Part shown: positions 1,745-13,560 of the stretch, one piece after another | How the letters are laid out: each line of letters starts with the position of its first letter | Position numbering within the stretch: position 1 is the first letter of the stretch | Assembly: GCA_040400605.1 (NCBI GenBank) | Contig: JBBAPZ010000011.1 | Coordinates: forward strand, 6,792-26,004 | Direction: 5' to 3' | Source of the DNA: Candidatus Sericytochromatia bacterium | Lineage (GTDB): Bacteria > Cyanobacteriota > Sericytochromatia > S15B-MN24 > JAQBPE01 | DNA length: 19,213 bases | Position numbers and translations under genes: made by a program | Notes under the pieces: model-generated | Told to the model about the DNA's origin: nothing | The model's input: only the letters and a program-made list of their open reading frames with translations | The model's database searches: none

Positions 1745-1924
1745 CTAACGGGGGTTCAACGCCCGTTGTTGACGAAAACATTGCCGACAACAGGGCAAAC
1801 CATCCACCTTCAGCGGAACAAGTGTCTCACGCGAGCACTGCACACAATGCACAGTCAGAAAGCGACTGGTGACAATCGCTTGAGGGGTTTTTTCTTGCCT
1901 TGAACTGGCAGACGTGGTGAGAAT
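1745..1924 (-). CDS. Small CxxC-x15-CxxC zinc-ribbon protein (59 aa) with probable ATT start
   Basis: Manual translation: (I/M)LTTSASSRQEKTPQAIVTSRFLTVHCVQCSRETLVPLKVDGLPCCRQCFRQQRALNPR*. GAGGAG is 8 nt before ATT, an in-frame TGA lies just upstream, and a terminator follows. Aligns by eye to the C-terminal domain of 13155-13463. Confidence 0.7.
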   Translation of the reverse strand: MLTTSASSRQEKTPQAIVTSRFLTVHCVQCSRETLVPLKVDGLPCCRQCFRQQRALNPR

Positions 1925-11031: not shown

Positions 11032-12708
11032 CTACGGTTCAAGGGGCACCGGGGGCAGCTTCATCAGTGCGAGCCAAGCCAATGCCAAACCTGCCAGAAT
11101 CCAACAGGCGATTGCCACCTGTGTCGCCCCAAATCCCCACCACAAGATGCCACCGAGCCACAACACACCTGCGATCGCGCCCCACGGCAAGCCCGCCCGG
11201 GCGGGCCGACCGGGCATCGAATTATGTCCTAAAAACGGGTGGCCGCTGCCACGCTCAAGCACCTTCAATGCGGCATCCAGCCGAGCGGGTAACCGCAGCA
11301 AATCCTGCCGCAACTCCTGCGTCCAGGTACCCACCTCCCGCGTGACAGACAGGTGCTCAGCCGCCGCGACAGCGACTTCATCCAGAAACTTGCCGTCCGG
11401 GTCCAACATCCGGCAAACACCAAACTGCGTCGATGCGCCGCGCCCCAAAAAGGCGATATCGGAGGGAAACTGAAACGCCGCGCTGTAAACCAAAGCCCGT
11501 AGATCCTGAACGACCTCAAGGAACTGTTCAGGCTTCAATGTGAAAATCTCGCCTTGAAGCTGTTTATCGAACAGCCAGGCGATGGTGCGGCTCAAAGCGG
11601 CGCGATCAGCACCCGGCCGCAAAACCGCCAGTTCATCAAGCCCCATCACGATGGCGTCCGGGTCCTTGCCCACAACGCCCACACCCACCCGCTTCAGTGC
11701 GCGTCGTTGCCGGGGCGTCAACTGTCCGACCATCCCGAAATCGATCAAGACCAGCTTGACGCCCGCGTCACCCGGCACCACCAAAATGTTGCCTGGATGC
11801 GGATCAGCATGAAAGAAACCGTCCACCAACACCTGACGCGATAACGCATGTACCAGCAATTTGGCCACATCGATTGGATCAACTCCCGCTTCCACCAACG
11901 CCTGCCGATCCTTCACCGAAATGCCAGGAAAATAAGACAAGGTCAACACACGCTGCCGAGTGTAAGACTCATGCACATGCGGCACCACAATACGAGGATG
12001 GCCGCCTGCTTCCGGATTGAACATCGCTGCGAACCGCTGGGTGTGACGCGCCTCTTCGCGCAAATCAAGCTCCCTGAGCAGAATATGGCAAGATTCAAAA
12101 AAGACCCCCGCCAAATCAAACGCCTTGGCCCATTCAGTCCATCGCAGCAGGCGCCGCACCACCTGACGGAAGCCTTCGAGATCAGCCCGGATCAAATCAT
12201 CAACGCCCGGTCGAAGCACCTTCACCACAACTTCGGCACCATCCGGTAAGGTGGCCCGATGCACCTGGCCCAAAGAGGCGGCGGCGAGCGGCACCGGATC
12301 AAACGTGGCGAAAACACGCTCCAGGCGATCGCCAAACTCAGCCTCAATCACCCCACGCACCGCTTCGAACGGAACCGGCGGCACCTCGTCTTGCAACGAA
12401 CTCAAAGCGGAAGTGAACGCAACCGGAAACAAATCACCCCGGGTACTGAGCAACTGCCCACCCTTGATCAACAAACCACCCAACGCCAACGCAGCCGCCC
12501 GATAACACTCACCCAACCCACGCCACATTTTCAAGCGAATGGCCTCCCGCGCCGCAGGCTCATCGCAAAAACGCAAACGCACGCGCTCCGTCCACAACCA
12601 GCGCACAGCCATCCGATAGAAAAGACGCAAGATGGCCGACACCCGCTTGCGGGCCAAACGCCGGCGCGCACGGGCAATCTGTAACTCGGACTGGGTCAGT
12701 TCACTCAT
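11032..12708 (-). CDS. ABC1/AarF/UbiB family atypical kinase with C-terminal membrane helices
   Basis: Motifs IKGGQLLSTR, LQD, AAASLGQVH, VKV, HADPHPGN and IDFGMVG; hydrophobic C-terminus. Start re-placed at ATG 12708 (track start 12828). Confidence 0.92.
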   Translation of the reverse strand: MSELTQSELQIARARRRLARKRVSAILRLFYRMAVRWLWTERVRLRFCDEPAAREAIRLKMWRGLGECYRAAALALGGLLIKGGQLLSTRGDLFPVAFTSALSSLQDEVPPVPFEAVRGVIEAEFGDRLERVFATFDPVPLAAASLGQVHRATLPDGAEVVVKVLRPGVDDLIRADLEGFRQVVRRLLRWTEWAKAFDLAGVFFESCHILLRELDLREEARHTQRFAAMFNPEAGGHPRIVVPHVHESYTRQRVLTLSYFPGISVKDRQALVEAGVDPIDVAKLLVHALSRQVLVDGFFHADPHPGNILVVPGDAGVKLVLIDFGMVGQLTPRQRRALKRVGVGVVGKDPDAIVMGLDELAVLRPGADRAALSRTIAWLFDKQLQGEIFTLKPEQFLEVVQDLRALVYSAAFQFPSDIAFLGRGASTQFGVCRMLDPDGKFLDEVAVAAAEHLSVTREVGTWTQELRQDLLRLPARLDAALKVLERGSGHPFLGHNSMPGRPARAGLPWGAIAGVLWLGGILWWGFGATQVAIACWILAGLALAWLALMKLPPVPLEP

Positions 12709-12716
12709 GGTTTGTG

Positions 12717-12725
12717 ATCTTAACA
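12717..12725 (-). promoter_or_regulatory. Extended -10 element (TG-T-TAAGAT) for the ABC1 kinase gene
   Basis: Sits 8 nt before ATG 12708 with no SD. Confidence 0.35.
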
Positions 12726-12924
12726 CGCCCGTTCGACACCCCGTAAAAACGAAAGGGGCTTGAGACACCGTTTTGATGGGTGCAGCAGCATCATTCCCAG
12801 GCGAAACGAAACGGCCTGACACCATCACCCACAGGCACCACCCTCAAGGCCAACCACCTCCAAACAGACCCCTGAAGCGCGTTTTGTGACCAACCGTGTC
12901 AGAAAAAACTGGCCAAGGAGAAAC

Positions 12925-12978
12925 TTGACATAGATGTTGACATTTACCCTCTTGACAACGGCGTGGGTGTGCTATAAT
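12925..12978 (+). promoter_or_regulatory. Sigma70-type promoter of the zinc-ribbon gene
   Basis: TG-C-TATAAT at 12970-12978. TTGACA at 12952-12957 (15-nt spacer), with further TTGACA copies at 12925 and 12937. Confidence 0.7.
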
Positions 12979-13024
12979 AGCGAGCGGTGAATCGTTGTCA
13001 GGTTAATGGCCGTATCGCTCATCA

Positions 13025-13156
13025 ATCGACTAACCTTTACCAAGTGGATGCCCAAGGGGGGGAGCAGGCGGGTGCCGTGAGCCGTCTGTTTCAGGTATGT
13101 CTCATCATCAATCGGAAACAGGCTCGCGGTTGGTCGCTGACGAAAGGTTAGTCGAT
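13025..13156 (+). ncRNA. Putative structured cis-regulatory 5' leader RNA sequestering the SD and start codon
   Basis: ATCGACTAACCTTT (13025-13038) is exactly complementary to AAAGGTTAGTCGAT (13143-13156). Nested helices: ACCAA/TTGGT, CCGTGAGCC/GGCTCGCGG and TGTTTC/GAAACA. Confidence 0.6.
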
Positions 13157-13463
13157 GCTCTATACGGATCAAATCATTGCCTGCGTGGATTGCGGGACCG
13201 AGTTCACTTTTTCTGCGCGGGAACAGGAGTTCTTTGCCCAGAAGGGTTTCACCAGTTTGCCAAAACGTTGCAAGCCCTGCCGTGGTGCGCGTAAGGACCA
13301 GTCCGGTTCGCGCGGTTCTTCGGAGTACGGCGGCGGGTATGGCGCGCCCCGTGAGCGGGAAATGCACAGCGTGACGTGTGCACAGTGTGGTGTGGAAACG
13401 CAAGTTCCCTTCAAGCCACGCGGTGATCGTCCTGTTTATTGCCGGAGTTGCTTCCAGAAGTAA
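13155..13463 (+). CDS. Two-domain zinc-ribbon protein (zf-trcl/PF13451-like plus CxxC-x17-CxxC), 102 aa
   Basis: CVDC...FTFSAREQEFF...PKRCKPCR, a Gly-rich linker, then CAQCGVETQVPFKPRGDRPVYCRSCF. Confidence 0.92.
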   Translation: MLYTDQIIACVDCGTEFTFSAREQEFFAQKGFTSLPKRCKPCRGARKDQSGSRGSSEYGGGYGAPREREMHSVTCAQCGVETQVPFKPRGDRPVYCRSCFQK

Positions 13464-13486
13464 GCCTTCAATTTAATAGATGCGTG

Positions 13487-13514
13487 GAGCCTGTCTGAAA
13501 AGACAGGCTTTCTC
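13487..13514 (+). terminator. Intrinsic terminator after the zinc-ribbon gene
   Basis: AGCCTGTCT-GAAA-AGACAGGCT followed by TTCTC: 9-10 bp stem, GNRA loop, short U tract. Confidence 0.7.
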
Positions 13515-13544
13515 ATTGCAATGGTGCGCACGATCGTGTGGACT

Positions 13545-13553
13545 TGGTACAAT
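13545..13553 (+). promoter_or_regulatory. Extended -10 element (TG-G-TACAAT) for the yitJ-like gene
   Basis: Sits 7 nt before ATG 13561 with no SD, just downstream of the terminator. Confidence 0.5.
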
Positions 13554-13560
13554 GGCTGGC

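Follow-up and report, generated by a model that had tools for sequence, protein, structure and literature searches.

How is a gene translated when its ribosome-binding site (RBS) appears to be sealed within a perfect RNA helix? The question is raised by a small zinc-finger gene in the window, the whole 19,213-nt stretch of Candidatus Sericytochromatia DNA analyzed here (genome G000). A sequence-only reading had described a promoter, a leader of about 170 nt, a 102-residue reading frame and a terminator as one self-contained unit, and had proposed that the leader acts as a translational OFF switch opened by temperature, a ligand or the encoded protein.

A self-contained unit with a conserved promoter layout

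The reading frame (13155..13463, forward strand) encodes a 102-residue protein featuring a PF13451 zf_Tbcl match at residues 5-50, a Gly/Ser/Arg/Tyr linker and a CxxC-x17-CxxC module recognized by both TIGR04272 and PF23477 at residues 68-102, with all three models scoring above cut-off (67.6, 72.2 and 71.6 bits). Eight cysteines are invariant across 34 sequences of zf_Tbcl plus CxxC-x17-CxxC proteins, two small fingers joined by a disordered linker make up the AlphaFold model, and the product is likely a zinc protein. PF00313 is absent from it, and the gene thus does not encode a cold-shock-domain protein. Orthologues were found in seven of the eight genomes of the family (none in G005 with the query used), and a metagenome scan with a coding-only pattern retrieved two further loci, L079 and L080; L079, being identical to the window, was left out of all counts and L080 was kept, giving a set of eight orthologues.

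A sigma-70-type promoter is predicted at 12952..12978 on the forward strand, with TTGACA at 12952-57, a 15-nt spacer and an extended -10 element, TGcTATAAT, at 12970-78, which would place the transcription start near 12985 and yield a leader of 170 nt. The promoter scanner gave no call at 12952-12978 because it requires a spacer of 16-18 nt and the actual one measures 15; the same TTGAC-15-TATAAT geometry is repeated in all eight orthologues. TTGACA occurs three times in tandem upstream of the -10 element (window 12927-12957), the last copy alone lying at the conserved 15-nt spacing, and no LexA/SOS box was found in the eight promoters with five box patterns and a loose box allowing one mismatch. 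At the other end, an intrinsic-terminator-like hairpin (13488..13514, forward strand) comprises a stem-loop at 13488-13509 with a GAAA loop, followed by a short and weak U tail; by eye, the orthologues likewise feature a GC-rich hairpin after the stop codon, mostly with a U run. The described arrangement of promoter, leader, gene and terminator is therefore borne out, its promoter layout recurring in eight of eight orthologues. Contigs from four of nine listed RNA runs, representing three studies, carry parts of the leader and the ORF on single pieces (13027-13558); strand, start and level are not readable from such contigs, in which uncovered flanks prove nothing.

A conserved leader outside Rfam

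The eight leaders range from 80 to 215 nt; the seven that were aligned share about 56% column identity, and all eight start with a G(U/G)UGUC box and end with RRGGUU(A/C)GUCG-AUG. Model R1, trained on seven leaders, recovered one copy in each of the seven family f1 genomes out of 61 genomes scanned, including the leader of G003, on which it was not trained (E = 2.6e-5); the remaining 54 gave no genuine match. An eighth match, in G042 (E 0.002), was dropped, as by eye it sits in a tRNA-gene stretch.

Scanning Rfam 15, which includes the cspA thermoregulator, ROSE, FourU and riboswitches, gave no match at gathering score: the window yielded three chance matches (E 2.3-3.2), none of them in the leader, the loci of 20 relatives yielded none, and all that turned up at 20 loci from other phyla was a tRNA. 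The initial impression that this is no known riboswitch thus survives the scan. The literature within search reach, which left some motif-discovery supplements outside, held no description of the leader or of a cold or RNA role for the protein family. Overall, the leader is real, conserved and uncatalogued, and we consider it very probable that it is a functional translational element.

A perfect helix over the Shine-Dalgarno sequence and start codon

In the stable fold of the full leader (hereafter OFF), an anti-SD arm (13025..13038, forward strand) pairs with the 3′ strand of helix P1 (13143..13156, forward strand), which comprises the SD AAAGG, the spacer and the AU of the start codon. The sequence-only reading had recognized this pairing as a perfect 14-bp helix, and it was right: no dinucleotide shuffle of the leader among 300 matches it, and none of 1493 other SD-bearing starts in the genome, crudely called, exceeds 10 bp. 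At 37 °C, opening the RBS costs 15.5 kcal/mol, more than at any of 150 sampled starts of the same genome (mean 7.7), and P1 extends past the start codon as a long duplex within the coding region. Opening energies at the same temperature amount to 11.4, 10.4 and 9.4 kcal/mol in G001, G007 and G004, respectively, and to 6.2-8.1 kcal/mol, near the G000 background mean, in G002, G003, G006 and L080.

Placed in register by hand, P1 pairs at 8-14 positions in G000, G001, G002, G004, G006 and L080, with double changes from U-A to C-G in G001 and from U-A to G-C in a second arm of G002 and G006. The helix requires a bulge in G007, and G003, which is devoid of the inner domain P2 (below) and of most of the arm, retains only a 7-bp core, so that its lock is largely lost. 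In a MAFFT alignment, 79.6% of P1 cells are paired, compared with 20-47% in slid controls, and P1 covariation is no higher than in shuffles (328 of 500 as high), a statistic computed from seven rows with G007 misaligned. Absence of covariation or conservation had been put forward at the outset as grounds for abandoning the helix: conservation of the leader is found, in seven of eight family genomes and L080, and covariation above that of shuffles is not, among seven sequences.

Could the complementarity have arisen by chance in one genome and be functionless? The insignificant covariation statistic would agree with this, as would the folding energy of the whole leader, which reaches only z = -1.68 with 10 of 200 shuffles equally good. 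Against it stand the counts of zero among 300 shuffles and 1493 starts, the retention of arm, P2 and SD-AUG spacer at about 56% leader identity and across lengths of 80-215 nt, and the recovery of the untrained G003 leader, and we regard a fortuitous helix as the least credible of the readings considered here.

P2 (13074..13130, forward strand), whose apical part is variable, is built around a CCGUGAGC/GCUCRCGG helix and is present in seven of the eight orthologues; G004 shows two double changes, and G000 and G001 have wobble pairs. The nested helices originally listed within P1 fared unevenly: 13075-83/13121-29 and 13087-92/13115-20 belong to the minimum free energy (MFE) structure; 13039-43/13130-34 is complementary and absent from it, and its end pair is broken in close relatives (three of four RNA runs: X1, X2 and X6) by T13130C, which strengthens the neighboring P2; and the G-rich arm exists in G000 alone and is not conserved. 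In a near relative from RNA run X5 the indels are confined to loops, and the apical part and junctions of P2 are free to vary, a near relative having lost 17 nt there. Across the eight leaders, a small sample, each invariant position falls in a helix, in the RBS or in the 5′ box, and loops vary in both length and sequence, a pattern that makes a ligand aptamer unlikely.

These observations bear on a riboswitch in which P2 would be the aptamer for Zn2+, SAM or another methionine-cycle metabolite. The neighborhood is one of methionine synthesis, with a homocysteine methyltransferase/MTHFR gene downstream in G000 and, in seven of eight orthologues, an upstream gene that is presumably metH-like. 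A zinc ligand would also suit the product, likely a zinc protein given zinc binding in its domain family as described in the accessible text of PMC12704099. Such a ligand-reading leader is nevertheless improbable in view of the missing Rfam match, the variability of the P2 apical part and junctions down to the 17-nt deletion, the restriction of the element to the finger gene alone, which has its own terminator, and the lack of a core in common with the leaders of other phyla.

In melting (zipper) thermometers of the ROSE and FourU type, the SD is held in a weak helix containing non-canonical pairs, which comes apart at growth temperature. P1, in contrast, is perfect over 14 bp, and opening the RBS costs from 13.5 kcal/mol at 45 °C to 25 kcal/mol at 5 °C; we therefore ruled out a heat-melting thermometer. 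Of the proposed OFF switch, the conserved and uncatalogued lock thus stands, its opening by heat does not, and its opening by a ligand is unlikely. As an opening cost of 13-25 kcal/mol means that the lock cannot melt, control must be kinetic or protein-assisted, and translation must rely on an alternative fold that forms first.

A predicted competing 5′ hairpin and a candidate divergent promoter

Such a fold, missed in the sequence-only reading, is predicted at the 5′ end of the leader. The ON hairpin (12986..13041, forward strand) consists of GGUGAA/UUUACC, GUU-GUC/GAC-U-AAC and an inner stem, is formed by the first ~57 nt and covers 12 of the 14 anti-SD nucleotides, an arm common to both folds. 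It is the MFE structure of the nascent 5′ part of the G000 leader at 10-45 °C, with an energy of -15.5 kcal/mol at 37 °C. Its 5′ strand includes the conserved box GGUGnnnnGUUGUCnnGU (12986..13003, forward strand), a candidate anti-anti-SD element. Box and arm pair at six of six positions in all seven arm-bearing leaders, with G007 altering both sides from U-A to G-C, and 90.5% of box-arm cells are paired, compared with 10-52% in slid controls. The GUG/YAC lower stem is retained in seven of eight leaders, and both of its sides are lost together in L080.

We further compared nascent and full-length folds, defining a leader as switch-like if at least 8 RBS nucleotides are locked and pairing upstream holds 6 or more arm nucleotides. 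Six of the eight leaders behave in this way (G004 narrowly fails and G003 fails), compared with 6-17 of 100 shuffles. As in csp-type leaders, therefore, the stable fold pairs an anti-RBS segment with the RBS and start codon in silico, and an alternative 5′ hairpin, the nascent MFE in G000 and found in six of eight orthologues, sequesters that same segment. The energy of the box-arm duplex is by itself not significant, 49-983 of 1000 shuffled boxes being as good, and when the RBS is constrained to stay open, most full-length MFE structures lack the ON hairpin (G001 and G004 being the exceptions).

The box has a second potential role. A candidate divergent promoter for the upstream gene (12974..13001, reverse strand; CTGACA-16-TATTAT) has its -35 element inside the leader box, whose TGUCA also reads as a good -35 for this promoter, which overlaps the forward one. 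All eight orthologues have a divergently oriented upstream gene, the reverse -35 is (C/G)TGACA in seven of eight, and the reverse spacer measures 16 in seven of eight and 14 in L080. In G000 the divergent slot is taken by an ABC1 kinase gene (window 11032-12828, reverse strand) with the reverse promoter geometry kept; in the other seven orthologues (L003, L004, L005, L080, L172, L175 and L178) it is occupied by what we take to be a metH-like gene. The predicted start sites of the two promoters lie ~18 bp apart, which the accessible part of a preprint gives as the commonest start-site spacing of bidirectional promoters (bioRxiv 10.1101/2020.01.31.928960).

Because the box doubles as the reverse -35 element, its conservation alone is no proof of pairing, and a static lock has to be weighed in which P1 would damp translation of a strongly transcribed gene (or serve as an RNase III-type cleavage helix), the box being kept only for the divergent promoter and the ON hairpin being incidental. 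The conserved divergent arrangement, with its -35, spacer and start-site distance, is what this reading would expect, and the insignificant box-arm energy and the long P1 duplex reaching into the coding region of G000 fit it as well. It does not account for the GUG/YAC pairing, which falls within the promoter spacer, where variation should be free, and whose two sides are co-lost in L080, nor for the G007 double change, nor for the 14-nt spacer of L080, a poor fit to a promoter; moreover, a permanent 15 kcal/mol block, placed after a near-consensus promoter, would allow next to no translation of the gene. At the level of sequence comparison, the GUG/YAC stem and the G007 double change appear as the independent part of the evidence for ON pairing, and we judge the static lock unlikely.

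Arm-like motifs are found in tandem in some leaders, three in G002 and G006 and two in G007. A side observation concerns the leaders of L005 and L036, where three such motifs at positions 61, 76 and 90 accompany an A-to-C change on the SD side. Copies one and two carry the matching G and copy three has a mismatch, a pattern that suggests arm duplication and hand-over.

A proposed kinetic two-state switch

We favor the interpretation of the leader as a two-state translational switch, with a probability of roughly 65%. By computation, the two folds are mutually exclusive and both are conserved, and, for the leader extended to +20, OFF lies 12-16 kcal/mol below ON at 10-37 °C. The refolding barrier was estimated with findpath at 11-17 kcal/mol, a rough upper bound that becomes erratic with 40 coding nucleotides; as any refolding slows in the cold, such barriers are not evidence for cold sensing.

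From these folds we infer use in vivo, an input from temperature, RNA binding by the protein and feedback, in the following manner. Once the first ~60 nt are transcribed, the 5′ box would pair with the anti-SD arm to form the ON hairpin; P2 would then fold independently, and SD and AUG would come out unpaired and available for ribosome loading. The ON state would be metastable and would refold into P1, 12-16 kcal/mol lower, with SD and AUG buried. Output would thus be set by a race between ribosome loading and refolding, in which cold would slow refolding and favor ON, and warmth, or an RNA chaperone unwinding the ON hairpin, would favor OFF. The likeliest chaperone would be the encoded protein itself or one of its paralogues, of a type with two zinc fingers and a Gly/Arg linker that appears to occupy the place of Csp or RRM RNA-binding proteins in this lineage, which would result in negative feedback. 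Temperature and feedback are drawn from the analogy with csp leaders and from the associations of the protein, and for the complete csp-type scheme, with cold input and chaperone feedback, we see the odds as about even.

The closest parallels are found in cold-shock genes. In Staphylococcus aureus cspB and cspC, the open form features a long 5′ hairpin that sequesters the anti-RBS, the locked form pairs anti-RBS with RBS, and the RNA chaperone CspA favors the latter, according to the accessible text of PMC8034633. The leader described here has the same two exclusive folds by prediction, its anti-RBS held either in a 5′ hairpin or on the RBS; unlike cspB/C, it precedes a zinc-finger gene rather than a Csp gene and carries no U-rich loop motif, and no sequence relation was seen. 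In Escherichia coli cspA, cspB, cspG and cspI, a stable fold spanning the UTR and early coding region hides SD and AUG, and a shorter, UTR-only fold, resembling transcription intermediates, frees them, as presented in the accessible portions of PMC9947658 and PMC13271884. Both folds and a similar leader length (about 170 nt) are shared with these; differences from cspA are the lack of an Rfam cspA match and the zinc-finger product. As the effect of CspA in the cold is described as stimulatory in the accessible text for E. coli cspA (PMC9947658), the sign of the feedback could here be either. By analogy, the leader most likely works like csp switches, outside every Rfam family.

A variant of the two-state switch would be read by protein alone, be it the product, a fusion of zf_Tbcl with a cold-shock domain (zf-CSD) or a ribosome-related factor; temperature would not be an input, and the repeated GRC(G/U)AAC arms would serve as putative binding sites in autoregulation. 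Conservation of both folds is as expected in this case, OFF is favored at every temperature, the tandem arm-like motifs of G002, G006 and G007 could be such sites, and the domain fusions described below point toward RNA binding; the link with cold-shock domains and the complementarity with RRM genes would be left unexplained. We consider this protein-only readout unlikely, if the first of the alternatives to be kept in mind.

Fusion to cold-shock domains and near-complementarity with RRM genes

The case for a chaperone in the csp-type switch comes from the genomic company of the protein family. In the best 120 of 727 longer homologues, the cold-shock domain (CSD) is the commonest non-finger partner, occurring in 18, with an RRM and a DEAD-box helicase in one each. 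The sole CSD in G000 is fused to zf_Tbcl; across the order, 7 of 27 genomes contain CSD matches, none of them in a frame shorter than 164 aa. Among the 61 genomes, 26 of the 27 without the finger protein have RRM genes (1-8 copies), versus 24 without an RRM and 10 with one among the 34 that have it, a distribution drawn from few lineages, with kin that are not independent and one protein query for the finger search. Fusions and the near-complementary RRM distribution suggest an RNA-chaperone role, and in its genomic pattern the family behaves like Csp and RRM proteins. Small ORFs, matched by eye, stand in a row with zf-CSD and RRM genes in G011, with zf-CSD in G000 and with RRM in G019.

Structure searches provided no relative: none in the PDB by sequence, a best Foldseek E of 0.37, a best VIA Z of 3.4, and in the Atlas the same family only. 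The accessible text on Methanosarcina mazei CxxC-x17-CxxC proteins reports that two members bind zinc and that the authors propose a role in transcription (PMC12704099), and that same text mentions neither leader RNA nor a cold link ('cold' occurring 0 times). Ours belongs to the same domain family of multi-copy small proteins and differs from them in having two fingers joined by a Gly/Arg linker within 102 residues. Cyanobacterial Gly-rich RRM proteins (Rbp) are often cold-expressed according to the accessible text of PMC12232666; the present protein is likewise small with Gly-rich parts, and unlike them does not have the RRM fold. Finally, the Chlorobi-RRM motif RF01697 is, according to the accessible text of PMC2864571, a structured leader with a cis-regulatory role on the gene of an RNA-binding protein; here too a structured leader precedes a small-protein gene, with RNA binding presumed for its product and no Rfam match to RF01697.

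Should the proposal hold, it would show how RNA is kept from folding at low temperature in lineages with no stand-alone Csp or RRM, and kinetic translation switches would gain an uncatalogued class. For the widespread, multi-copy CxxC-x17-CxxC/zf_Tbcl family, the csp-style switch, the CSD fusions and the near-complementarity with RRM proteins together offer a concrete and cheap test of its role.

Several further gene contexts were noted. Unannotated proteins of 84-93 aa lie directly before zf-CSD and/or RRM genes (L181:1747-2028, reverse strand; L180:2250-2525, reverse; L182:659-910, reverse; L182:1162-1419, forward), the three that were tested have no Pfam match, and they are possibly another RNA-related small protein. 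The gene directly before five paralogues is presumably infA. In genera g9 and g10 (L022, L024, L029; L031, L044, L045, L047), the single family gene directly follows an upstream gene with no leader of its own, and six of the seven genomes have an RRM gene.

Leaders on family genes elsewhere

Anti-SD leaders recur on family genes beyond this family of genomes. In the wider protein family, 59 of 80 loci were inspected, and unrelated, clade-conserved leaders were found repeatedly. In 18 Clostridia (L103, L109, L110, L112, L114, L116, L118-L120, L124-L126, L129, L130, L132, L136, L137, L156), the roughly 130 nt preceding the start form a highly conserved leader with an invariant anti-SD, TTCCTC, and two mutually exclusive predicted folds. 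Of 13 leaders that were folded, 12 conceal the SD in the full-length structure and most conceal the anti-SD in the nascent one, and three tested leaders had no Rfam match. Fourteen Limnocylindria/Chloroflexia (L096, L104, L111, L135, L139, L141, L145, L152, L154, L161, L163, L165-L167) feature a nearly invariant CCCUCC-type arm, nested helices, a conserved GGGGYAGCGGCAAGA loop region and a GUG start. In nine other Chloroflexota (L099, L102, L107, L113, L117, L123, L138, L147, L157), a 5′ UCCGCAG competes with the RBS for one arm, the RBS pairing in six. As an additional observation, L097, L098, L100, L101 and L115 carry a further leader type, in which a 5′ segment is set against the RBS for one arm. 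Only 0 of 14, 2 of 13, 4 of 9 and 3 of 5 leaders have an RBS duplex energy better than that of 95% or more of the shuffles, and with energies mostly not significant the recurrence in these phyla is only a lead. A still broader possibility, which we put forward tentatively and with some doubt, is that zf_Tbcl/CxxC-x17-CxxC proteins are a third, unrecognized class of cold-shock-type RNA chaperones beside Csp and RRM, on which unrelated, kinetically trapped two-state autoregulatory leaders would have evolved separately from Sericytochromatia to Chloroflexota and Clostridia, the ON strand doubling as a divergent -35 element in the present case.

Within the window, a distant single-finger paralogue (1745..1924, reverse strand) has an SD and no AUG, GUG or UUG in frame before its conserved N terminus, and AUU (or ACG) is a possible start. 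It bears a weak likeness to the C-terminal finger (TIGR04272, 15.7 bits, E = 0.009, cut-off 36) and was not recovered by a PF23477 search of the genome. Its orthologue in G004 begins with ATG-ILT, which supports the reading frame and indicates that an AUU start is not conserved. The paralogue first described as AUU-initiated thus holds as an ORF and loses the start-codon argument, and the idea built on it, of a family controlled at translation initiation, parts with that basis and draws support instead from the anti-SD leaders in other phyla.

Leader motifs specific to other paralogue clades within the order were also observed: UUCGACUG plus CAGUCGAA beside the SD in L016, L061, L063 and L067; a GGGUAUUC/GAAUGCCC-type hairpin in L006, L011, L053 and L062; and GUUCUUGU with CAAGAAC in L033, L035, L037, L038, L040, L041 and L071.
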